From the NCBI RefSeq assembly GCF_055900595.2, contig NZ_CM148325.1: a stretch of DNA of 64,000 bases, one strand, 5' to 3'. Positions 1,249 through 62,035 of this stretch are shown piece after piece. Below the pieces are notes generated by a model. That model had not been told where the DNA came from, ran no database searches, and worked only from the letters and a program-made list of their open reading frames with translations. The stretch's first letter is position 1, and each line of letters starts with the position of its first letter. A program made the translations under genes and the position numbers.

Positions 1249-1607
1249 ACATCCCGGTTTCTTCCACCATCGCACCGGAAAAGCGACTATGAGGGTAACC
1301 CTGCGTCTGTCAGCACAGTAAAACCCGGTGTGCATCGTTTTTGATTATTCCCGCACACTCACGCAGAAGGAATTCCCCGTCGGGCTACGGTCATGGTTAA
1401 TGCGGGAATACGGCGACGATACAGCGCAGCTAAAAGGGTAATGGACAGAAAGAGCGGTTTATTTCATTCCACAGGATTCTGAGTGCCCCCCTCCTCCAAT
1501 AGGCTGAGCATCCACCTATATAGTTTTAATTTTCATCAATCCATTTAACTATCGTTTAATTGTTGTCACATAGGATTCTGCCGTTTTTAACAATGCAGGA
1601 TAATAAG

Positions 1608-1901
1608 ATGAAAAAAATGTTGTTTTCTGCCGCTCTGGCAATGCTTATTACAGGATGTGCTCAACAGACGTTTACTGTTGGAAACAAACCGACAGCAGTA
1701 ACACCAAAGGAAACCATCACCCATCACTTCTTCGTTTCGGGAATTGGACAGGAGAAAACTGTTGATGCAGCCAAAATTTGTGGCGGCGCAGAAAATGTTG
1801 TTAAAACAGAAACCCAGCAAACATTCGTAAATGGATTGCTCGGTTTTATTACTTTAGGCATTTATACTCCGCTGGAAGCGCGTGTGTATTGCTCACAATA
1901 A
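1608..1901 (+). CDS. borD: Bor lipoprotein (serum-resistance family)
   Basis: MKKMLFSAALAMLITGC... signal peptide with lipobox Cys; matches Bor. Start taken at the internal ATG 1608 of the track ORF 1560..1901. Confidence 0.9.
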   Translation: MKKMLFSAALAMLITGCAQQTFTVGNKPTAVTPKETITHHFFVSGIGQEKTVDAAKICGGAENVVKTETQQTFVNGLLGFITLGIYTPLEARVYCSQ

Positions 1902-1932
1902 TTGCATGAGTTGCCCATCGATATGGGCAGCT

Positions 1933-2394
1933 CTATCTGCACTGCTCATTAATATACTTCTGGGTTCCTTCCAGTTGTTTTTGCATAGTGATCAGCCTCT
2001 CTCTGAGGGTGAAATAATCCCGTTCAGCGGTGTCTGCCAGTCGGGGGGAGGCTGCATTATCCACGCCGGAGGCGGTGGTGGCTTCACGCACTGACTGACA
2101 GACTGCTTTGATGTGCAACCGACGACGACCAGCGGCAACATCATCACGCAGAGCATCATTTTCAGCTTTCGCATTAGCTAACTCCTTCGTGTATTTTTCA
2201 TCCAGTGCAGCAACATCACGCTGGCGCATCTGCATGTCAGTAATTGCCGCGTTCGCCAGCTTCAGTTCTCTGGCATTTTTGTCGCGCTGGGCTTTGTAGG
2301 TAATGGCGTTATCACGGTAATGATTAACAGCCCATGACAGGCAGACGATGATGCAGATAACCAGAGCGGAGATAATCGCGGTTACTCTGTTCAT
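1933..2394 (-). CDS. rzpD: Rz spanin (i-spanin)
   Basis: [65 protein letters not shown]..., lambda Rz-like; 4-bp overlap with the lysozyme stop. Confidence 0.85.
1992..2174 (-). CDS. rzoD: Rz1 spanin (o-spanin lipoprotein), embedded in Rz in the +1 frame
   Basis: 60-aa [27 protein letters not shown]...[21 protein letters not shown], proline-rich lipoprotein wholly inside Rz. Confidence 0.8.
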
Positions 2395-2888
2395 TGCTGA
2401 CCCCACAAACAGATTTCACGCTCAATCTCACGACGAGTCATGAGACCTTTCCATTGCTTACCGCCAGCATATGTCCAGCGACGTAGCTGATCACATGCGC
2501 CTTTGATATCGCCCTGGTTTATTTTGCGAAGAAGCGTCGATGTTCTGAAATTGCCAGCGCCCACGTTGTAAACGAACGAGTAAAGAGCGCCGCGCGTTGT
2601 TTCCGGTATATCAACTTTTATGTACGGGTTAATTTGTCTGGCGACCGTGGCAAGGTCTTTATTCAGGAGGGCTTTGCATTCTGCTTTGGTATACGTTTTA
2701 CCGAGCATGATGTCTTTTCCTGTATGCCCGTGACATACAGTCCATACACCAACAATATCTTTGTATGGTATGTAGCTGACACCTTCCAGACCATCGTTAC
2801 CACTTGGGCCAGTGATTAACACTGATGCTATAGCAATTGCTCCGCCACCAATAGCAGCAGCAACGGCTTTTCGTAATGATGGAGGCAT
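2391..2888 (-). CDS. rrrD: Phage endolysin (lysozyme)
   Basis: 165-aa ORF with ...[25 protein letters not shown]...[12 protein letters not shown]..., recognised as DLP12 RrrD-type lysozyme. Confidence 0.9.
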
Positions 2889-3103
2889 TATTCACCTCTC
2901 GCAGCCTTGCGCTTATCTTCTTTAATCTTGAAATAAAGGTTTGTCAGGTACGTCAGCAGGCCAAATACCAGGCTACCCAGCACACCTATTGCTGCCCACT
3001 GTGAGGGCGTGACTTTATCGAGCAGCTGTAAAAACCAGTAACCGGCACTACCTGCTGAGGTGCCATAGGCGACACCCGTTGTTAACTTATCCATGGATTT
3101 CAT
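2888..3103 (-). CDS. essD: Holin
   Basis: [71 protein letters not shown]; small membrane protein directly upstream of the lysozyme. Confidence 0.8.
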
Positions 3104-3813
3104 AACCCCACCTCGCAGACAAAGCGGGTGTAAATTGAGGGAATACAACGTATCGCAAAAAAGCAGAAACGTAACAGACTCGGAGTCAGTGAATAACTCA
3201 GGTATTGAGTTATCAGCTAATATCGAGACTCAAAAAATGGAAAAACCAGCTCGACGGCGGGTTTAAGCTGTGTGACGAAGTAACCACTCTTAACAGCATA
3301 ACCAATTTTTTACGTACGTAAACCACTGAATGATATTTATGAGAATGCTACCGAGTGTTCAAAACACCACCACAAATATATAAGAAAACCTCAACAAATA
3401 ACCAATAAATAATTTCCGGCGTTATTTTTAGTTGATTTGAATTAAACCACCGAATTATAGAACCCCCATAAATAACAGCCATTAATATAAATTAGCTAAT
3501 AGGTTTATTTTTGTTCAAATAAGAGCCATAAATAGGTTTCGATAGAAAAAGTTCAGATAAAAATAGAGATCTACTTCACAAATTAAATGAGAAACTAAAA
3601 CTTACATCTTGAAATAATCACATTGATTAGATGAATATTTATCGCGCAGTGACATCATTTTTTAATAATAGTTCAAAAAAAAGGGCTCACGATGAAAAAA
3701 TTAACAGTGGCAATTTCTGCTGTAGCTGCATCAGTACTGATGGCGATGTCTGCTCAGGCAGCTGAAATTTATAATAAAGACAGTAACAAGCTGGATCTGT
3801 ACGGGAAAGTTAA

Positions 3814-3822
3814 TGCCAAGCA
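3814..3822. repeat. Left copy of the 9-bp IS10 target-site duplication (TGCCAAGCA)
   Basis: Identical 9-mer abuts both IS10 termini. Confidence 0.8.
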
Positions 3823-5151
3823 CTGATGAATCCCCTAATGATTTTGGTAAAAATCATTAAGTTAAGGTGGATACACATCTTGTCATATGATCAAATGGTT
3901 TCGCCAAAAATCAATAATCAGACAACAAAATGTGCGAACTCGATATTTTACACGACTCTCTTTACCAATTCTGCCCCGAATTACACTTAAAACGACTCAA
4001 CAGCTTAACGTTGGCTTGCCACGCCTTACTTGACTGTAAAACTCTCACTCTTACCGAACTTGGCCGTAACCTGCCAACCAAAGCGAGAACAAAACATAAC
4101 ATCAAACGAATCGACCGATTGTTAGGTAATCGTCACCTCCACAAAGAGCGACTCGCTGTATACCGTTGGCATGCTAGCTTTATCTGTTCGGGCAATACGA
4201 TGCCCATTGTACTTGTTGACTGGTCTGATATCCGTGAGCAAAAACGGCTTATGGTATTGCGAGCTTCAGTCGCACTACACGGTCGTTCTGTTACTCTTTA
4301 TGAGAAAGCGTTCCCGCTTTCAGAGCAATGTTCAAAGAAAGCTCATGACCAATTTCTAGCCGACCTTGCGAGCATTCTACCGAGTAACACCACACCGCTC
4401 ATTGTCAGTGATGCTGGCTTTAAAGTGCCATGGTATAAATCCGTTGAGAAGCTGGGTTGGTACTGGTTAAGTCGAGTAAGAGGAAAAGTACAATATGCAG
4501 ACCTAGGAGCGGAAAACTGGAAACCTATCAGCAACTTACATGATATGTCATCTAGTCACTCAAAGACTTTAGGCTATAAGAGGCTGACTAAAAGCAATCC
4601 AATCTCATGCCAAATTCTATTGTATAAATCTCGCTCTAAAGGCCGAAAAAATCAGCGCTCGACACGGACTCATTGTCACCACCCGTCACCTAAAATCTAC
4701 TCAGCGTCGGCAAAGGAGCCATGGATTCTAGCAACTAACTTACCTGTTGAAATTCGAACACCCAAACAACTTGTTAATATCTATTCGAAGCGAATGCAGA
4801 TTGAAGAAACCTTCCGAGACTTGAAAAGTCCTGCCTACGGACTAGGCCTACGCCATAGCCGAACGAGCAGCTCAGAGCGTTTTGATATCATGCTGCTAAT
4901 CGCCCTGATGCTTCAACTAACATGTTGGCTTGCGGGCGTTCATGCTCAGAAACAAGGTTGGGACAAGCACTTCCAGGCTAACACAGTCAGAAATCGAAAC
5001 GTACTCTCAACAGTTCGCTTAGGCATGGAAGTTTTGCGGCATTCTGGCTACACAATAACAAGGGAAGACTCACTCGTGGCTGCAACCCTGCTTACTCAAA
5101 ATCTATTCACACATGGTTACGTTTTGGGGAAATTATGAGGGGATCTCTCAG
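3823..5151 (+). mobile_element. IS10 insertion sequence (1329 bp)
   Basis: Begins CTGATGAATCCCCTAATGATTTTGGTAAAAATCATTAAG and ends ...ATTATGAGGGGATCTCTCAG (IS10 outside/inside ends from memory); length 1329 bp; encodes the transposase. Confidence 0.9.
3930..5138 (+). CDS. IS10 transposase
   Basis: 402-aa [70 protein letters not shown]..., recognised as Tn10/IS10 transposase. Confidence 0.9.
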
Positions 5152-5160
5152 TGCCAAGCA
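5152..5160. repeat. Right copy of the 9-bp IS10 target-site duplication (TGCCAAGCA)
   Basis: Same 9-mer as 3814..3822; removing IS10 plus one copy restores ...VNAKHYFSS... in frame. Confidence 0.8.
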
Positions 5161-6250
5161 CTACTTTTCCTCTAACGATGCAGATGATGGTGATACTACT
5201 TATGCCCGTCTTGGCTTCAAAGGTGAAACCCAAATCAACGATCAACTGACTGGTTTCGGTCAGTGGGAATATGAATTCAAAGGCAACCGCGCTGAATCTC
5301 AAGGTTCCTCCAAAGACAAAACCCGTCTTGCATTTGCAGGCCTGAAATTCGGTGACTACGGCTCAATCGATTACGGCCGTAACTACGGTGTAGCATACGA
5401 CATCGGTGCGTGGACTGACGTCCTGCCAGAATTCGGTGGTGATACCTGGACCCAAACAGATGTGTTCATGACTGGTCGCACTACTGGTGTTGCAACTTAT
5501 CGTAACAACGACTTCTTTGGTCTGGTCGATGGCCTGAACTTTGCTGCTCAGTATCAGGGTAAAAATGACCGCACTGACGTAACTGAAGCCAATGGTGATG
5601 GTTTCGGTTTCTCCACTACTTATGAGTATGAAGGATTCGGCGTGGGTGCAACCTATGCTAAATCAGATCGCACTGACGGTCAGGTCGCCTATGGTAAGAG
5701 CAAATTCAATGCCTCCGGCAAAAATGCGGAAGTATGGGCTGCAGGCCTGAAATATGATGCGAACAATATCTATCTGGCTACCACATATTCTGAAACTCAG
5801 AATATGACCGTTTTTGGTAATAACCATATTGCAAACAAAGCACAAAACTTTGAAGCAGTAGCACAATATCAGTTTGACTTCGGTCTGCGCCCATCTGTTG
5901 CTTACCTTCAGTCAAAAGGTAAAGACCTTGGTGTTCATGGTGACCGAGACTTAGTCAAGTATGTCGATGTCGGTGCTACTTACTACTTTAATAAAAACAT
6001 GTCCACTTTTGTTGATTACAAAATCAACTTAATTGACGATAGTAAGTTTACCAAAACAGCTGGTATTGATACTGATGACATCGTTGCTGTAGGTCTGGTT
6101 TACCAGTTCTAATCTGATTACGAAAAAGATATGTTGCGGGAGGCGTTGCCTCCCCAACATATAAGTGGCTCCCTCAAGCCACTTCCTTTAGAAGCACAAC
6201 CTTGCTTCTAACTATATAAACCTTCTGTTATATATTACCCTTTATTTTTG

Positions 6251-6275
6251 GGGGCGTCTCAACGCCCCATTTTTA
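6251..6275 (+). terminator. Rho-independent terminator downstream of nmpC
   Basis: GGGGCG-TCTCAA-CGCCCC hairpin followed by ATTTTTAATAATTTTT. Confidence 0.55.
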
Positions 6276-6301
6276 ATAATTTTTAGTAAACAATTGGCAT
6301 A

Positions 6302-6700
6302 TTAATTAGAGTTATTAACAACGATATCCATCTCTAACCGGATATCTAATGCCATTAACATCCCTTCAATTATGCCCTCAGCCTTTTGTAACCTTTTCCC
6401 GATATAACCATCAGAGCAGCAATGCTTACCTGCCAGTGACATGAATGTCATACCGACTACATAATAATCTACTAATAAATCGTGCAAATCGCTGTTGTTC
6501 TTTTTCAGACGGGCCATGCACCCGCAAATGATCATCGCGTCATCGTCACAACATTGCGGGCGAGATTTTACTTTTGAAGGAATTAATCCCTTAAAACCGG
6601 CGGCAATGGACGACCAGGTCACATCTTCATGATTATTAGCCGCCCACGCTCCCCAACGCTCAAGAACCATCTGAATATCACGCATCAACTTACTCCACAA
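6302..6700 (-). CDS. quuD: Late-gene antiterminator Q-like protein
   Basis: 132-aa ORF ...[18 protein letters not shown]...[36 protein letters not shown]...; Q position upstream of the lysis cassette; recognised as DLP12 QuuD. Confidence 0.75.
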
Positions 6701-6767
6701 AACTCAGACCAGAACGCCAATTACAAGCAAAAATCAACAAAACAGTATTAGTTGATTGTTATCTCTG

Positions 6768-6908
6768 ACTTCATACTCCTGCTCCTGTCAGTGTTTTGGC
6801 GTAATTCTTCAGTATTCGGTAATCGGTCAAAACAGAGCCGGGGAAACGATATAAGCGCAGACGCCCCCAGCGGTGGCGAAGAAGTTCTGCCATATTAAAC
6901 TCAAACAT
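6768..6908 (-). CDS. ylcG: Small prophage protein (YlcG-like), 46 aa
   Basis: Manual translation [45 protein letters not shown]; start overlaps the rusA stop. Confidence 0.4.
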
Positions 6909-7270
6909 CATTCATTCCCCATTTCGGTGATGGTCAGTTCCAGCCTCCCACCTTTGGTAACAGGCATCTTCACAACGCGGTAATCAACGACCTGAGCATC
7001 ATCCAGCCAGAAACCTGCTTTAGTGAGTGCGTCAAAAGCGGCTTTTTGCAGATTATCCAGGTCACGGCGACGGCGATCCGGCATGTGGCACTCAATGCGG
7101 ATTTTCACAGGCATAGCCAGGCCGATATCCAGCATTGCGTTTTTAATGATTCGGGCGACGTTATCGCGGTATGCCTGCCCCTCTGCGCTGACGTGCGTGC
7201 GCCCGCGATTATGGCGGTAATAGCGATTATTGCTCGGAGGCCAGGGTAGTGTGATGTGGTAAGTATTCAC
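6908..7270 (-). CDS. rusA: Holliday-junction resolvase RusA
   Basis: 120-aa [54 protein letters not shown]..., recognised as RusA. Confidence 0.9.
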
Positions 7271-7559
7271 GCCTTAATTACCCTCTCTTTCAGCCAGATA
7301 ACCTGCGTTCTCGCCATACCTTCCAGCGCGCATTCTTTTGCATATCCAGCGTCAACAAAATGCGTGCGGCGGTCGATTTCGTCGTGGCAGGCAGAACATG
7401 CAATGGTGGCAATCAGGTCTGGCGGTTTGATACCGGTACCGCACAATCCAGCCAGCCGGATATGTGCCAGTACAGACGTCTCAGAATTGCCATTACATAC
7501 GCCAGGGATTCTTACCTGGCATTCCCGACCACGCGCTGCTTTTCTCAAATCAGCCATGA
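7267..7559 (-). CDS. ybcO: Nin-region protein YbcO (Cys-rich, putative nuclease)
   Basis: [62 protein letters not shown]...; start at the internal ATG of the track ORF. Confidence 0.8.
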
Positions 7560-7720
7560 TTCCTCCTTGCTGCCAGTCGCAACCATTTTTTATCAACCAG
7601 GCTAGCGGTATATCCGAGCAGTGTTGGTATTTCGGATGGCTTCAGCTCAGGCTTACGCTTACGACGATTTGATACTCTGTAGATGTGTCCGTTCATGACA
7701 CGAATAAGCGGTGTAGCCAT
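7547..7720 (-). CDS. ninE: NinE-like small protein
   Basis: Manual translation [56 protein letters not shown]; start overlaps the ybcN stop, stop overlaps the ybcO start. Confidence 0.55.
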
Positions 7721-8175
7721 TACGCCTCCTGCTTGTCGCGGAGCAGCTGGAACTCGCAGCTCTGCGGAATAGTCAGGTGGCAGCCAATATTCATCGCCCA
7801 GGCTTCAACCTTACACAGGAAGACATACATCTCTCCGGTATCAAGATTGGAGGTATGGCGTAACGACTGGATAGTGGTGATATCACCGGTTACGACATCA
7901 ACCAGGTCTTTGGTTTCATAACCGAGATATGTGTGTTTGAGAGCATCTTTTACCCAAGCTGGAGTGGCGAACGTTTTACCCCTGCTGATGAGGTATTCAC
8001 TGATTTCGCTGTACCACATGTGGCTGAGTGCATTCTGGGAAAGACTGCGTTTCTCACGCCACGGTTTAAGCACCAGGCGAAAGCATTTGCCCTCCTCCAG
8101 ATAAGGCTGGATCTGCCGACCGATAGCGGTGAAGTTGCCGCGATGTAATTTGATGCCGTCTTGTGAGAGGTTCAC
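7720..8175 (-). CDS. ybcN: NinB-family recombination protein
   Basis: 151-aa ORF (GTG start) [55 protein letters not shown]..., recognised as DLP12 YbcN. Confidence 0.85.
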
Positions 8176-8208
8176 GCTTCCCCTCCGCAGAGGTCAAACG
8201 TTGGATGC

Positions 8209-8333
8209 AAAAAAACGCAGGTGCATTTCTGCATCTGTGAAGGGAGAAGAGAGTTTGGATTGTATGTGCGCATAAACGTCCCCGTTTAGCGCAGAAGTCA
8301 CCGGAGTTGTTCAGGCTCCGATGACATGATTAT
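8209..8333. repeat. Direct repeat A (about 125 bp) flanking the accessory cassette
   Basis: AAAAAAACGCAGGTGCATTTCTGCATCTGTGAAGGGAGAAGAGAGTTTGGATTGT... aligns with 10596..10720, with about 16 substitutions and one 1-bp indel by manual alignment. Confidence 0.75.
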
Positions 8334-8359
8334 GGCGGGTTGATTATTGAAAATCAAAG

Positions 8360-12171: not shown

Positions 12172-13097
12172 AGATCAACCCCGTAAATCCAGTCTGTGTT
12201 TGTCAGGTCGAGTTTTGGTTTGCTGGCTGTCACGCCTGCCTGTTGCTTGTTACGGTTGATTTCGAGCTGGGTCCACTTGTCGCGGAGTTTGGCCGGACTT
12301 AGCACGTTACCGGACCAGAAGTTGTCCTGGCATGCCCAGCGGAACAGCACGCACATGTCGCGGTGGTTACGTCCGTCACGTTCACGCATCAGGCGGATAT
12401 CGTTAGCCCACCCTGCAAAATTCGGTTTTCTGGCTGATGGCGCGATGGTCTTCACCATGTCAAACATCCACTCTGCGGCGGTCAGGTCTTCTGCTGTCCC
12501 CCACTTGCTGCCGCTCTGAATCGCAGCATCCGGTTTCACCACAGGAAGGTCGTTTTCTGGCTGATCAGAGGATTCGCCAGAATTCTCGGACGAATAAGGT
12601 TTTATATTGTCTTTTGTTAGTTTGTCTTTTGTGTTTACCTGATTCGGGTAAACGCCTTTACCTGATTTGGGTAAACTTTTCTTACCTGATTCAGGTAAAT
12701 TTACCTCTTTCAGGTAAACTTTATTTTTCTTACCTGATTCGGGTAATGTTGACCATTCACTGACCACATTATTAATACCGATATTCCGCCCGCTCTGAAT
12801 CAAAATCCCACGCTTTACCAGAACACTTTTTGCAGCAGAACACTTGTGCGGTAATATCTCGGTCAATCCAGACAGTTGCTCGTTGCTCACCCAATCCAGT
12901 TTTTTATTAAAGCCATATGTTTTGCGCATGACAGCCAGGAAGACCAGAAGCTGGTGCTGTGTTAATCCGGCCAGCATCACAGCTTCCAGCAACTCATTTG
13001 CAATGCGCGTATAACCATCATCGAGATCTGCCACGCGCGGCTCCTTTTGTGCCGCATCCGGCACTGGAAAATTGAATATCTCAGCAGTGTTTGCCAT
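12168..13097 (-). CDS. O: Replication initiator O (lambda-like C-terminus, divergent iteron-binding N-terminus)
   Basis: Start taken at MANTAEIFNFP... (SD GGGAGGA upstream) inside track ORF 12168..13187; C-terminus ...WMFDMVKTIAPSARKPNFAGWANDIRLMRERDGRNHRDMCVLFRWACQDNFWSGNVLSPAKLRDKWTQLEINRNKQQAGVTASKPKLDLTNTDWIYGVDL matches lambda O. Confidence 0.85.
   Translation of the reverse strand: MANTAEIFNFPVPDAAQKEPRVADLDDGYTRIANELLEAVMLAGLTQHQLLVFLAVMRKTYGFNKKLDWVSNEQLSGLTEILPHKCSAAKSVLVKRGILIQSGRNIGINNVVSEWSTLPESGKKNKVYLKEVNLPESGKKSLPKSGKGVYPNQVNTKDKLTKDNIKPYSSENSGESSDQPENDLPVVKPDAAIQSGSKWGTAEDLTAAEWMFDMVKTIAPSARKPNFAGWANDIRLMRERDGRNHRDMCVLFRWACQDNFWSGNVLSPAKLRDKWTQLEINRNKQQAGVTASKPKLDLTNTDWIYGVDL
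12635..12746. repeat. Phage replication origin: five iterons (TTACCTGATTCGGGTAAA-like inverted repeats) inside the O gene, next to an AT-rich stretch
   Basis: Copies at about 12635, 12658, 12682, 12701 and 12730, each with TTACC...GGTAA arms; AT-rich run at 12600..12634. Confidence 0.65.
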
Positions 13098-13183
13098 AAT
13101 TCCTCCCGCAATGAGTGTGTTACGATTTGCACCTGAAAGTCGGTTCTGTTCCAGCAGACCGGCTTTCGCCATTTCTGAACCTG

Positions 13184-34840: not shown

Positions 34841-34859
34841 CCTGGTACTCATATTCCTG

Positions 34860-35255
34860 CCGGATGCGGCGTGAACGCCTTATCCGGCCTACTAATCCGG
34901 TACCCATTGTAGGCCTGATAAGACGCGTCAAGCGTCGCATCAGGCATGGTGCGCCGATTACCGGATGCGGCGTGAACGCCTTATCCGACTACCAATCCGG
35001 TACCCATTGTAGGCCTGATAAGACGCGTCAAGCGTCGCATCAGGCATGGTGCGCCGATTACCGGATGCGGCGTGAACGCCTTATCCGACTACCAATCCGG
35101 TACCCATTGTAGGCCTGATAAGACGCGTCAAGCGTCGCATCAGGCATGGTGCGCCGATTACCGGATGCGGCGTGAACGCCTTATCCGACTACCAATCCGG
35201 TACCCATTGTAGGCCTGATAAGACGCGTCAAGCGTCGCATCAGGCATGGTGCGCC
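34860..35255. repeat. Tandem BIME/REP array (four units of about 100 bp, each holding two inverted REP palindromes)
   Basis: Unit CCGGATGCGGCGTGAACGCCTTATCCG...GTAGGCCTGATAAGACGCGTCAAGCGTCGCATCAGGC repeats at 34860, 34961, 35061 and 35161 with near-identical content. Confidence 0.8.
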
Positions 35256-36992: not shown

Positions 36993-38252
36993 TCAACCAA
37001 TCCCCATGCTTTCAGCCAGAGCTTCCAGCGCCTGTTCAAAGCACGCCAGCGGTGCCCGCACAGTGCCTGCACCAATCTGCCCGATCCCCGCCTCTTTATG
37101 GGCGATACCCGTATTGATGAGTGGTGTAATGCCGGTTTCTACCACGCGACGAATATCCAGCCCCAGACACGCGCCCTGGAAATCCCAGCCAGGGATCTGC
37201 AACTGCATATTGCGCTCAAGGAAGATTTCTGCCATCTCTTCAGATACTGCTCTGGCTGCTTCCATACCACCCGCACCGACAAAGCGTGTTACGCCAGGGG
37301 CGGCGATCATTGCCGCACCACCGATACCAAAGGTTTCGGTAATCGCGCTATCGCCCATATCCGGGTTCGCCTGCTCCTGCGAGAAGCCGGTGAAAAACAG
37401 ACCTTGCGGAGTGTTAACTGGCGCAGTAAACCAGCGCTCGCCCAGCCCACTTACCCGAATCCCGAACATATTGCCGTTGCGGGTCATAGCCGTGACGATG
37501 CTGCCCGCGCGGATCATCGCGCCTGCATCCATCGCCGCCTTGCAATAGGCCATCGCGAGGTTGAGGAAGAACTGATCGGTCACGCTGAGGAAATCCATTA
37601 CTTCCGCGATGTGCTGTTTATTGTGATCGAGGCGGGCAATTTGCGGTGCCAGCGCGCGCATCAACAGTGCTGAGGATGCAATGTTGCGCTGATGGAACTC
37701 ATCGCCCATCGTAATGCCCTGTGCCATCATCGCGGTGAGATCGATACCGCGCTCCATGCGCCCCAGCGCCGCGCTTAATACTGGCATTAACACATCGCGC
37801 ATCCAGCGATGGCGAGTCAGGACATCTTCGCCGTAAGCGCCAAAACGCATCACTTTACCGATACCTTCGTTGAGGTTGCAGTACGCCCGGTTGCCGTCGG
37901 TCACGTTCTCGACCACCAGCATCGGCATACTGGCAGAAGTAATGCCACCCATTGGCCCGACGGCATTCACATGGTGACAAGGAATGAAGTTCACTTCCCC
38001 CTGCTCCAGCATCGCCAGCGCCTGCGCTTCATCTTTCGCCCAACCTTCGAACAGACATGCGCCCACGCACGCCCCTTTCATGGGGCCGGTCATCTCCTGC
38101 CAGCGCATTGGCGGCCCGGCGTGAAGCAGTGTTTTGCCCGGGTGTAGTTCGCTGATAAGTGAAGAAGCCGGTTGCACATCCAGCCAGTGTGGACGAGCGC
38201 GACGAATTTGTTCGATAACCGCAGCATTGGCTTGCGCCACTGATGTAAACAT
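36993..38252 (-). CDS. ylbE: Conserved protein YlbE (intact here)
   Basis: Uninterrupted 419-aa [43 protein letters not shown].... Confidence 0.8.
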
Positions 38253-54290: not shown

Positions 54291-55217
54291 ATGTTCGATC
54301 CAGAAACCTTGCGGACTTTCATTGCGGTTGCTGAAACAGGAAGTTTTTCAAAAGCGGCAGAACGATTATGTAAAACCACGGCGACGATCAGTTATCGCAT
54401 TAAACTTCTGGAAGAGAATACCGGAGTGGCGCTGTTTTTCCGCACGACTCGCAGCGTGACGTTGACAGCGGCTGGCGAGCATCTACTTTCTCAGGCCAGA
54501 GACTGGCTGAGCTGGCTGGAAAGTATGCCCAGCGAGCTGCAACAGGTGAATGATGGCGTGGAACGCCAGGTGAATATTGTCATCAACAACCTGCTCTACA
54601 ACCCCCAGGCCGTCGCCCAGCTGCTGGCGTGGCTGAATGAACGTTACCCCTTTACCCAGTTTCACATCTCACGACAAATCTATATGGGCGTCTGGGACTC
54701 GCTATTGTACGAAGGTTTTTCACTGGCTATCGGCGTCACGGGAACCGAGGCGCTGGCAAATACCTTTAGTCTTGATCCCTTAGGATCGGTGCAATGGCGC
54801 TTTGTCATGGCGGCGGATCATCCGCTGGCGAAAGTTGAAGAGCCGCTAACAGAAGCGCAGTTGCGGCGCTTTCCGGCGGTTAATATTGAAGACAGCGCTC
54901 GCACCTTAACCAAGCGCGTCGCCTGGCGTTTGCCGGGGCAAAAAGAGATTATTGTTCCCGATATGGAAACGAAAATCGCCGCCCATCTGGCGGGCGTTGG
55001 CATTGGTTTTTTGCCAAAATCACTTTGCCAGTCAATGATCGATAATCAACAATTGATCTGCCGGGTAATCCCAACGATGCGCCCTCCTTCGCCATTGAGT
55101 CTGGCATGGCGCAAATTTGGCAGTGGCAAAGCGGTAGAAGATATTGTGACCTTGTTTACTCAGCGCAGGCCGGAAATCAGCGGATTTTTAGAAATTTTCG
55201 GCAACCCACGCAGTTAA
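54291..55217 (+). CDS. allS: LysR-family activator of the allantoin regulon
   Basis: 308-aa [57 protein letters not shown].... Confidence 0.9.
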
Positions 55218-55270
55218 AAATCAAGTTTCCTTGCGCGTTGGCGCGTAAAATAGCGTGCAAGCTGATTTGA

Positions 55271-56380
<1,110 letters not shown>

Positions 56381-56394
56381 TAGGCGGTATTCTG

Positions 56395-56505
56395 TGCACG
56401 CTGTTCATGCCGGATGCGGCGTGAACGCCTTATCCGGCCTACGGTTAAGTGCAGTTTTGTAGGCCTGATAAGACGCGCCAGCGTCGCATCAGGCAATCTA
56501 ACACC
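56395..56505. repeat. REP/BIME element (inverted pair of REP palindromes)
   Basis: GCCGGATGCGGCGTGAACGCCTTATCCGGCCTAC ... GTAGGCCTGATAAGACGCGCCAGCGTCGCATCAGGC between convergent selU and ybbP. Confidence 0.7.
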
Positions 56506-56510
56506 TGTCA

Positions 56511-58925
56511 TCACCCCGCAAACTGCCTGAACAGCGCCTTCCCTTTTACCAGTCGCGCGCCCAGCCAGCCGCCGCAAAGCGACAGCAGCAGCGCACCGCT
56601 GCACGGTAGCACAATCCACAATCGCCAGTCTGGCTCCCACGGGAAATCAAACACTTTCGCCTGCAACACTGCCAGTGCCGTTTCCGCACCAATTGCGGCC
56701 ACCAGGCCGGATACAAACCCGAGCATGGCGAACTCACACCACAATGTCGTGCGCAGCAGTTTTTTGCCCGCACCGAGAGTGCGCCACACCACCAGCTCCT
56801 GATGACGCTGACGCATTCCCACCTGCACCTGTGCCAGCAACAGCAACATACCGCAGGCGGTGACCAGCACCACCATCACTTCCAGCGCCCGGCTTACCTG
56901 CTCCAGCACCTGACTGACCTGTTTTAAAATCGCGCCAATGTCTAACAGGCTAATGGTAGGGAACTGGCGGTTGAGTTGCGTCAACATGCCGTTGCCATTC
57001 TCCCAGCGGAAACTGGTAAGCCAGCTCTGCGGTTGCCCGTCTAATGCCCCTTCAGGGAAAATAAAATAGAAATTAGGCCGCAGACTTTCCCAGTCCACTT
57101 TGCGCAGGCTGGTCACTTTAGCGCGGAACTCCTGGGTATCGCCCATAAAAGTCACGGTATCACCGAGGGCAACGTTTAAGCGTTTCGCCAGCCCCTCTTC
57201 CATCGACACTTCATCGGCTTTTGGCGGCCAGTTACCGGCGACAATCGGATTATGATCGGGCCGCGTATTTTGCCAGGTAAGATTGAGTTCGCGATTGAGC
57301 GCCTCATCTTCATTGCCTTCTGTCGGCTTATCGTTAATCGCCGTCAACCGCGCCCGCACTACCGGATAAAACGATTCCGGGACTATTTGATGTTCCGCGA
57401 GGAACGCTTTTAGCGGCGTAACCTGTTCTGTGGCGATGTTGATTAAAAAGTAGTTCGGGCTTTCTGGCGGTAGCTGCTGTTGCCAGCGGTCGAGCAGATC
57501 GCCACGCAACACCAGCAACAGTGCCAGCAGCATAAAGGAGAGCGAAAATGCCGAAAGCTGGCTTAACGTTGACCACGGCTGACGTAACAGGCGGCTGACC
57601 GCCAGACGCAGAGGTAGCGATTTTAGCGTCAGGCGGCGAAGTACATTCAGCAGCATCCAGCCCAGCACACCGCACAGCAAAGCCAGCACTACCGCGCCCG
57701 CCAGCACTGCCCAGAGCAGCATACTGCCGCCCATCAGTCCGGCGAGCAACAGCACAACCACCACAGTGACAATAGGCAGATAAAACTTCAGCGGCCAGAC
57801 GTTCGCGACCACATCATTACGCAATACGCGTAAAGGCTGCGTTGCCAACAACAAGCGGTACGGTCGTAGCCCCACCAGCAGCGAGATGACTGTCATGGTG
57901 CCCAGCGCCCACAGCCACGGCCAGAGGCTGGCTGGCGGTAATGCAGCAGGCAGAACGGGCTTGAGCAGCACCATCAACACGTTTTCGAACAACAGGCCTA
58001 TCGCCCCGCCGGTAACGGCTGAAAGCGCCAGCACCATCAACCACTGGCCGACGATTAGCTTACGCAATTGCGCTCGCCCTGCTCCCAGCGTTTTGAGGAT
58101 CGCCACCAAGTCGTAGCGACTGCGACAGTAATGATTCATCGCCACCGCGACCGCCGCCACCGCCAGCAGCAAGGTCAGAAGCGCCGAAAGCAGCAGGAAC
58201 TGTTGCGAGCGTTCCATCGAGCGCCCCAGCGCGCCTTCGTCCTGTTCCAGACCGTACCAGCGTTGTTCTGGTTTAAGCTGTGGTAACAGCCATTTCTCAT
58301 AGCCGTCGAGCTGGTTCTCGTTGCCGCCGAATTTATAGCGCCAGGTGACCCGACTCCCCGGCTGCACGGCTCCGGTTTTATCGACATCCGCCAGATTCAT
58401 CATCAGACGCGGAGCCATCTGGAAGGGGTTAAAACCGGAATCCGGTTCCTGAATCACTTCTCCGGCAATCCGCAAGGTGGCATCGCCCACGTCAATGGTG
58501 TCGCCCGTTTTCAGGTTAAGCAGTGCCATCAGGCGTGGGGCCAGCAATACGCTGCCCGCCTGCGGTTTCAGGCCAGGGGGATTGGTTTGCAGATCGCCAT
58601 ACATCGGGTAGATATCATCCACCGCTTTAACATTCGCCAGCTGCGGTGTGTCGCCTGCAAATGTCATGGTGGCGAAAGTCAGCTGCTTGCCGACTTTCAG
58701 GCCGCGCTTTTGCGCTTCCTCCAGCCACGCTTGCGGCACTTCGCGCGAACTGCGCAACGCCCGATCGCCCGCCATAAACTCACGGCTCTGCTGGCTTAAG
58801 CCCTTCTCCATGCGATCGCTGATATTGCCCAGCGCCAGCACGCAGGCCACCGCCAGGCTTAGCGCCAGCCAGACAATTAACAGCGACGGCGAGCGCCATT
58901 CGCGCCAGAACCAACGTGCAATCAT
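56511..58925 (-). CDS. ybbP: ABC transporter permease (FtsX-like)
   Basis: 804-aa polytopic membrane ORF; 4-bp overlap with the upstream ATPase gene. Confidence 0.85.
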   Translation of the reverse strand: MIARWFWREWRSPSLLIVWLALSLAVACVLALGNISDRMEKGLSQQSREFMAGDRALRSSREVPQAWLEEAQKRGLKVGKQLTFATMTFAGDTPQLANVKAVDDIYPMYGDLQTNPPGLKPQAGSVLLAPRLMALLNLKTGDTIDVGDATLRIAGEVIQEPDSGFNPFQMAPRLMMNLADVDKTGAVQPGSRVTWRYKFGGNENQLDGYEKWLLPQLKPEQRWYGLEQDEGALGRSMERSQQFLLLSALLTLLLAVAAVAVAMNHYCRSRYDLVAILKTLGAGRAQLRKLIVGQWLMVLALSAVTGGAIGLLFENVLMVLLKPVLPAALPPASLWPWLWALGTMTVISLLVGLRPYRLLLATQPLRVLRNDVVANVWPLKFYLPIVTVVVVLLLAGLMGGSMLLWAVLAGAVVLALLCGVLGWMLLNVLRRLTLKSLPLRLAVSRLLRQPWSTLSQLSAFSLSFMLLALLLVLRGDLLDRWQQQLPPESPNYFLINIATEQVTPLKAFLAEHQIVPESFYPVVRARLTAINDKPTEGNEDEALNRELNLTWQNTRPDHNPIVAGNWPPKADEVSMEEGLAKRLNVALGDTVTFMGDTQEFRAKVTSLRKVDWESLRPNFYFIFPEGALDGQPQSWLTSFRWENGNGMLTQLNRQFPTISLLDIGAILKQVSQVLEQVSRALEVMVVLVTACGMLLLLAQVQVGMRQRHQELVVWRTLGAGKKLLRTTLWCEFAMLGFVSGLVAAIGAETALAVLQAKVFDFPWEPDWRLWIVLPCSGALLLSLCGGWLGARLVKGKALFRQFAG

Positions 58926-59608
58926 GCTTCCTCCTGCAACTGCCCGTTAACCAGTCGTAAGCAGCGATCGCAGCGTGCCGCCAGTTGCAGGTCGTGAGTC
59001 ACCATAATCAACGTGGTGCCATGCTCACGGTTGAGGGAAAACAGCAGGTCGGCAATTTTATCGCCCGTCTGGCGGTCAAGATTACCGGTGGGTTCGTCGG
59101 CAAACAGCACATCAGGCCGACCATTAAAAGCTCGCGCCAGCGCCACTCGTTGCTGTTCGCCGCCGGAAAGCTGTGCCGGAAGATGATCAAGACGTTTACC
59201 CAGCCCTAACTGTTCGAGCAACGCTTTCGCCCCATTACGACTTTCCGCGCTACTTTCACCGCGCAGCAGCGCCGGAAGCTCGACGTTTTCCAGCGCGTTA
59301 AGGGTAGGAATTAACATAAATGACTGAAAAACAAAGCCTACGTGCTTCGCGCGCAACTTTGCCCGCGCTTCTTCGTCCATATTATGTAGCGGTTGTCCCA
59401 CCAGACTCACTTCGCCACTGCTGCCGTCATCCAGCCCGGCGAGGATCGCCAGCAAGGTTGACTTACCCGATCCCGACTCGCCCACCAGCGCGATGGTCTC
59501 GCCACGTTTGACAACCAGCTCAACTCCGGTGAGGATGGAGAGTTCATGCTCCCCCTGACCGACGGACTTCTTAAGATGATGAACTTCAACAATGTTTTCC
59601 GCTGGCAT
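58922..59608 (-). CDS. ybbA: ABC transporter ATP-binding protein
   Basis: 228-aa ORF with Walker A GESGSGKST, signature LSGGEQQRVALARA and Walker B. Confidence 0.85.
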   Translation of the reverse strand: MPAENIVEVHHLKKSVGQGEHELSILTGVELVVKRGETIALVGESGSGKSTLLAILAGLDDGSSGEVSLVGQPLHNMDEEARAKLRAKHVGFVFQSFMLIPTLNALENVELPALLRGESSAESRNGAKALLEQLGLGKRLDHLPAQLSGGEQQRVALARAFNGRPDVLFADEPTGNLDRQTGDKIADLLFSLNREHGTTLIMVTHDLQLAARCDRCLRLVNGQLQEEA

Positions 59609-61924: not shown

Positions 61925-62035
61925 TGAAATGCGATGTGCTGGTTTGTAGGCCTGATAAGACGCGCCAGCGTCGCATCAGGCATCCGCGCATAGCCGCCGG
62001 ATGCGGCGTGAACGCCTTATCCGGCCTACCAAACC
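61925..62035. repeat. REP/BIME element
   Basis: GTAGGCCTGATAAGACGCGCCAGCGTCGCATCAGGC ... GCCGGATGCGGCGTGAACGCCTTATCCGGCCTAC downstream of ybbN. Confidence 0.7.

Follow-up and report, generated by a model that had tools for sequence, protein, structure and literature searches.

In Escherichia coli K-12 MG1655 the genes selU and ybbP stand on either side of a large RhsD element, and in the strain studied here they face each other across a gap of little more than a hundred bases. The question raised by this locus is whether so short a junction, found within a continuous stretch of 64 kb of DNA (the window), represents a site in its state before Rhs insertion, a site that has lost its cargo or a false join in the assembly, and what kind of DNA fills the gap.

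The selU-ybbP junction carries no Rhs element

The selU gene (also mnmH), encoding tRNA 2-selenouridine synthase, occupies positions 55286..56380 on the plus strand as a 364-aa ORF with a TAA stop codon at 56378-56380, and ybbP, encoding a putative ABC transporter permease, occupies positions 56511..58925 on the minus strand as an 804-aa ORF whose stop codon is the complement of 56511-56513. Both identities were obtained with NCBIfam equivalog models, NF008749 for SelU/MnmH (755 bits against a cutoff of 548) and NF041854 for YbbP (1462 bits against a cutoff of 999), and both names are also used in the RefSeq annotation of an identical sequence from Z0117EC0005. Between the stop codons of these two convergent genes lie 130 bp (56381..56510), with allS upstream of selU and ybbA and tesA beyond ybbP, so that the coordinates, the convergence and the gap of about 130 bp given in the original prediction were exact by both the ORF list and the NCBIfam models.

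In the MG1655 genome (NC_000913.3), the 7,301 bp between the end of ybbP (522830) and the selU stop codon (530132) contain rhsD, ybbC, ylbG and the pseudogenes ylbH', ybbD' and ylbI'. This bears out the placement, given in the prediction, of the RhsD element and its associated genes between ybbP and selU in that strain. The K-12 segment showed the usual Rhs composition, with a GC content of 28% in the upstream region, 64% in the core and 40% in the tail. In a blastn comparison, homology between the window and MG1655 broke off immediately after the selU stop codon (56381) and resumed at 56505, 6 bp short of the ybbP stop codon; because homology breaks essentially at the two stop codons, the spacer has been wholly replaced in K-12 and not interrupted. 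No REP was found inside the MG1655 Rhs segment even with up to six substitutions allowed, and K-12 therefore does not preserve the spacer. Neither blastn of the 7,301-bp MG1655 segment nor tblastn of RhsD detected any Rhs DNA or protein in the 64-kb window, and a large YD-repeat core ORF with its C-terminal tip and immunity gene is missing between ybbP and selU, making this an empty allele. Since neither Rhs DNA nor RhsD protein matches the window, both a collapsed element and a relic of one were rejected.

The same picture could in principle arise from an assembly in which an Rhs element present in the strain had been collapsed or skipped and selU falsely joined to ybbP, multi-copy Rhs cores being, as a general consideration and not as a result of our searches, a frequent cause of breaks in short-read assemblies. 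However, six complete genomes of canine and human origin from different countries matched the 3.8 kb across the junction (55200-59000) with 100% identity, two further complete genomes differed by about 1 base across the junction, and the two genes are adjacent in hundreds more complete genomes. SMS-3-5 and many others shared the same total junction length with 96.5% identity. A collapse would also have left Rhs or Rhs-flank sequence at the join, of which there is none in the window, and the sequence at the join is homologous to the E. albertii spacer. Assembly across a collapsed repeat, named beforehand as an outcome that would overturn the prediction, is thus excluded by six identical complete genomes and a window free of Rhs, and we give an artefact of this kind a practically negligible probability.

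The window was 96-98% identical to MG1655 over its full length, in agreement with the proposed non-MG1655 lineage. A local introgression at the junction was considered and dropped because the identity of ~96% is not local, the whole window being 96-98% identical to MG1655. An intact ylbE had also been put forward as a mark of the lineage; the gene is indeed an intact 419-aa ORF (36993-38252, minus strand), but it does not distinguish the strain because ylbE in the current MG1655 RefSeq record (b4572) is likewise an intact CDS of 1,260 bp. The suggested difference in DLP12 content stood, with window positions 1-20288 matching MG1655 only in patches. Within this DLP12-like region the matching patches covered 1-1265, 1554-3824 (94%), 5152-6037 (84%), 6071-8358 and two pieces of ~300 bp, ~12 kb had no K-12 similarity, and the K-12 IS3 and IS5 insertions were absent.

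The spacer is a pair of opposed REPs

Read from selU towards ybbP, the spacer opens with a unique part (56381..56408), TAGGCGGTATTCTG followed directly by TGCACGCTGTTCATGCC, which is conserved in E. albertii and B2 strains in the spacer comparison (alignment A1). It continues with a 34-nt Y-type REP, or palindromic unit, on the plus strand (56409..56442; GCCGGATGCGGCGTGAACGCCTTATCCGGCCTAC), a 16-nt linker of the short "S" type read from the sequence (56443..56458; GGTTAAGTGCAGTTTT) and a 36-nt Z2-type REP on the minus strand that is opposed to the Y REP (56459..56494; GCCTGATGCGACGCTGGCGCGTCTTATCAGGCCTAC). A second unique part (56495..56510; AATCTAACACCTGTCA) adjoins the ybbP stop codon and is kept beside ybbP in the Rhs-bearing allele of O157:H7. 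The names Y and Z2 and the description as a BIME-2-type unit with a short S linker are used in what we take to be the sense of the Gilson/Bachellier nomenclature. The earlier statement that one REP/BIME occupies the gap is therefore right as to one BIME but not as to a single REP, the spacer holding two opposed REPs, Y and Z2.

Each of the two units has 14-nt arms that are 86% complementary, was recovered in the inverted-repeat search (I3 for Y, I2 and I5 for Z2) and forms a hairpin in the MFE fold. Both are imperfect palindromes of the ~35-40-nt kind, with the GCC(G/T)GATG...CCTAC architecture of REPs, and together they show the make-up of a BIME, i.e. REPs of differing types in alternating orientation (Y on the plus and Z2 on the minus strand) joined by a 16-nt linker. 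The spacer as a whole folded far better than its shuffles, with z values of -4.8 and -4.2 for the two strands. In the 64-kb window, exact copies of Y were found at 34859 and 61996 and an exact copy of Z2 at 61946, against an expectation by chance of 0 exact copies of either (100 dinucleotide-preserving shuffles), and the central ~100 bp of the spacer matched a median of at least 39 places per E. coli genome, mostly unannotated. The units are thus dispersed, multi-copy and extragenic, as REPs and BIMEs are, and the spacer is non-coding repeat DNA. The copies at 61946-62029 form a second BIME in the window, made of the same exact Z2 (61946-61981, minus strand) and Y (61996-62029, plus strand) in reversed order, and the copy at 34859-34892 is a solitary exact Y REP.

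The REP hairpins lie 28 nt past the selU stop codon and 16 nt past the ybbP stop codon. A role of REP hairpins in protecting mRNA 3' ends is established, and by analogy the two hairpins here, located where the convergent selU and ybbA-ybbP transcripts would end, probably protect these ends from exonucleases and attenuate read-through. No intrinsic terminator (hairpin plus T run) was detected on either strand of 56200-56700, the REP hairpins being without a T tail. As regards protein binding, BIME-2 is associated with gyrase and BIME-1 with IHF, and a Y-Z2 pair is of the type reported to bind DNA gyrase; by the same kind of analogy, the Y-S-Z2 unit is possibly a gyrase-binding BIME-2 site.

A more active role would be that of a functional REP-derived sRNA, a nucleoid-associated RNA like naRNA4, encoded by the spacer in place of a passive repeat pair. 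The strong predicted structure of the spacer would suit such an RNA, as would matches on both strands to the REP325-derived family RF02564 (naRNA4) in Rfam, with 38.9, 38.2 and 34.0 bits and E values of ~1e-5. Yet scores of 34-39 bits fall below the gathering score of 59.5, as is expected for any Y/Z2 REP, no sigma-70-like promoter was found in the spacer in a promoter scan, and the spacer is dispensable, being wholly absent in K-12 and in B2 strains. We consider an sRNA here very improbable.

Alternative contents of the junction in E. coli genomes

The occupancy of the junction was counted in 5,426 complete E. coli genomes. A K-12-type ybbP-rhsD junction (at least 80% covered) was present in 2,859 genomes (~53%), ybbP and selU were close together in 1,861-1,899 (~35%), and a Hcp-family T6SS protein (tssD, 667 aa) with DUF2931 genes was present in 574 (~11%), these three classes together making up ~98% of the complete genomes. 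A dinQ-like module of ~570 bp, or its 462-bp deleted form, was detected in 1,315 of the 5,426 genomes (~24% of all) and was placed within the close-together class because it has a single location per genome and because of the rows that were sampled. The remaining few hundred genomes with close genes have REP-only or REP-free spacers in several forms, namely 58 bp in the B2 strain IHE3034, 140 bp with a Y-L-Z1 unit, 130 bp with the Y-S-Z2 unit of the window and 234-240 bp with both units. Of the 21 genomes with close genes in a rough stratified sample (60 rows), 14 carried the dinQ-like module, three the 240-bp, one the 140-bp and two the 58-bp spacer, in addition to the window's own type. The exact 130-bp Y-S-Z2 spacer with flanks at least 99% identical was rare (12-13 of ~5,470 records).

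The dinQ-like module, labelled "DinQ type I toxin" in RefSeq, sits at a position equivalent to that between 56394 and 56395 of the window, and the breakpoint with the locus L003 also falls at 56394/56395. It was examined at L003:2196-2765, L008:11322-12033 and L015:3232-3949, contains a small ORF, MKTFLDKVLIVLKALIALLELIRQFIE, and is flanked on both sides by copies of a 26-bp direct repeat, AAAAAAACCGACATGACAGTYGGTTT, of which a solo copy remains as a scar at L013:11085-11345. The module is also present at this site in Escherichia sp. E1V33. At megablast level it showed no match to the dinQ locus of K-12, and we found no description of such a module at the selU-ybbP site in the literature. The scar-bearing genome, SCPM-O-B-8794, is a species representative labelled "E. 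coli" in GTDB, and since it shows only 92-94% nucleotide identity to the window it probably belongs to a separate Escherichia species cluster.

The third type of content, found at L011:14237-19133 in JKHS006 and at L014:1071-4654 in E. whittamii, is an orphan T6SS effector cassette made of a Hcp-toxin of the Hcp-ET type (a tssD gene with a C-terminal extension, 666-667 aa) and two to four DUF2931 genes; its carriers include ST131 strains and E. whittamii. In JKHS006, the sole allele of this kind examined for the point, the C-termini of both flanking genes were altered (ybbP of 816 aa and mnmH of 368 aa). A hairpin on the ybbP side, TACCTGGTAGAAATAAACGGCTTTATCACA, is common to the 58-bp spacer of IHE3034 and the junction of the Hcp cassette.

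Direction of change at the junction

The wider history of the site was approached with one SelU scan of a species-representative genome collection. The convergent selU-ybbP pair was conserved in Escherichia, Citrobacter, Kluyvera, Pseudenterobacter, Kosakonia, Superficieibacter and Buttiauxella, with outgroup spacers ranging from ~65 bp to ~5.5 kb, and the slot is variable across Enterobacteriaceae. The spacer of Citrobacter and Kosakonia (L018:11090-15191 and L033:11057-15367) held three genes for a metNIQ-like ABC transporter and a porin-like gene (~377 aa), that of some species only the porin-like gene (L023), and that of Buttiauxella just 65-70 bp with a hairpin. An E. coli-like selU (95-98% amino-acid identity) was also encountered in a MAG contig of an uncultured Alistipes sp. 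(L048), which carries a K-12-type Rhs junction as well, and in a 394-bp contig of Trinickia soli (L088); both are probably contamination.

Closer to E. coli, the one E. albertii genome compared carries at this site a 245-bp composite BIME of the order Y-S-Z2-s-Y-L-Z1 and no Rhs, and the composite BIME of E. coli EC-10 has the identical architecture (240-245 bp in the two). In alignment A1 the window was colinear with the composite on both flanks and through Y-S-Z2, and its spacer equals the composite minus 110 bp, from the end of Z2 through most of Z1. The endpoints of this deletion fall within CGCATCAGGCA, a sequence common to the ends of Z2 and Z1, so that it is a REP-to-REP deletion; the 140-bp allele corresponds to the complementary Y-to-Y deletion. 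A long 35-nt linker with an IHF-like site, AATCAATATATTG, is present in DLL7555, EC-10 and E. albertii and absent from the window, which lacks this linker and the second Y REP because of the 110 bp deleted.

Further evidence came from the edges of the Rhs element in the two strains whose junctions were compared, O157:H7 TR01 (L093:13987-14100 and 19653-20081) and MG1655 (L001:5832-6261 and 13018-13132). In the Rhs allele of TR01, the sequence beside selU comprises GGCGGTATTCTG and, from the left end of the dinQ-like module, ~35 bp; beside ybbP, a Z1 REP survives as its distal half, followed by AATCTAACACCTGTCA, the ybbP junction reading ...CCTGATAAGCGTAGCGCATCAGGCAATCTAACACCTGTCA followed by TCACCCC. 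The element itself is common to O157 and K-12 up to ...AATTTAAACA, and the short sequences joining it to the flanks differ, MG1655 having 51 bp beside selU and 40 bp beside ybbP that are unlike those of O157. Among all the loci compared, the sole match to these MG1655 stretches was the K-12-like contaminant contig L048. As remnants of the spacer stand on both sides of the element in O157, Rhs would therefore have landed in a REP-bearing spacer like that of the window and deleted its middle, and because the O157 allele keeps these pieces, the junction of the window can be called the pre-insertion (empty) state. The BIME-only spacer of E. albertii and the O157 remnants thus justify the term "empty site for Rhs insertion" used in the original prediction, but the site is not specific for Rhs, since in other lineages a dinQ-like module or a Hcp-toxin cassette is the cargo.

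As judged from the O157 remnants, a single E. albertii genome and published work, the Rhs-free state is most likely ancestral, and we hold it highly probable that the window carries the unoccupied, ancestral-type allele of the known polymorphic site Rhs "locus 3" (ybbA/ybbP - ybbB/selU).

The alternative is a secondary loss, by which a former allele with RhsD or other cargo was replaced by the BIME-only spacer through homologous recombination in selU and ybbP with a Rhs-free donor. Recombination around the junction has some support. The nucleotide identity to most E. coli was 95-96% for selU and ybbP against 97-99% for allS and ybbA, a higher divergence than that of the neighbors, as is expected around a recombination hotspot, and over its last 200 bp ybbP fell to only ~92% identity with K-12 in a subset of strains that is probably B2 (1,183 records at 90-95%). 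This divergence of selU and ybbP suggests old allelic lineages around the hotspot and, being unusually high between lineages, makes allelic replacement by recombination plausible. K-12 and O157, which share the element and differ in the junction remnants, also indicate that junctions get reshuffled, and widespread loss of rhs genes has been described among related strains (Jackson et al. 2009, PMC2935791). Nevertheless, the spacer of the window contains no remnant of Rhs, of an H-repeat, of the dinQ-like module or of the Hcp cassette, but for one REP-REP deletion it runs colinear with the BIME of E. albertii, and its closest flanks are those of L003, another Rhs-free allele with the same Y-S-Z2 unit. 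A secondary loss is thus distinctly unlikely, and an unoccupied, ancestral-type allele is the reading that we retain.

A broader proposal, which we put forward tentatively and rate as rather unlikely, is that the junction is a long-lived multi-allelic slot for conflict cargo. Through recombination in the divergent flanks, mutually exclusive RhsD, Hcp-toxin and dinQ-like cassettes and BIME-only spacers would pass from one lineage to another and even across species of Escherichia, with REPs perhaps serving as breakpoints, and the resulting polymorphism would be balanced under selection and not a product of neutral gain and loss.

Under the preferred reading of an unoccupied, ancestral-type allele, the spacer of the genus Escherichia would originally have been the composite BIME Y-S-Z2-s-Y-L-Z1 of about 240 bp. 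In the lineage of the window, a 110-bp deletion between the CGCATCAGGCA ends of Z2 and Z1 would have reduced it to the single 130-bp Y-S-Z2 unit, while in other lineages toxin-type cargo would have replaced part or all of the spacer. The RhsD element would have been acquired by K-12, B, W, O157 and others; ST131-like strains carry the Hcp-toxin/DUF2931 cassette and many strains the dinQ-like type I toxin module.

Relation to Rhs locus 3 and to known BIMEs

The position of the junction is that of Rhs locus 3 (between ybbA and ybbB, at 523.6 kb), described as a conserved locus with variable occupancy by Jackson et al. (2009, PMC2935791). In that study locus 3 was inferred to be a duplicate of position 6 that arose within E. 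coli once a group of pathogenic strains without the Clade I rhs expansion had branched off, and E. albertii was reported to have rhs only at positions 1, 5 and 6. In the table of Archer et al. (2011, PMC3032704), the strains K-12, B and W have rhsD in the corresponding interval b0496-b0503, and Crooks has an empty site there. Because both studies report it, the presence/absence polymorphism is already documented, and the junction of the window is an ordinary, published and hence already known case of it.

For annotators, the junction signals that the strain is not K-12-like and that one Rhs toxin locus is missing, and the spacer can serve as a clean reference for Rhs locus 3 before insertion. 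The site also neatly illustrates a chromosomal hotspot for genes of interbacterial conflict, of a kind already documented; researchers working on such hotspots may find modest use in the four-way allelic series of toxin cargo, the REPs at the breakpoints and the remnants in O157.

Compared with known systems, the window agrees with the empty state of Rhs locus 3 in ATCC 8739 (Crooks) in both chromosomal position and flanking genes. The alleles with a dinQ-like module or a Hcp-toxin cassette occupy the same selU-ybbP spacer, whereas the window has neither. The spacer itself resembles a BIME-2-type REP pair in likewise consisting of two opposed imperfect palindromes that are extragenic and highly repeated, here placed between convergent genes, and differs from BIME-2 clusters, of which tandem arrays are typical, in having a single Y-Z2 unit.
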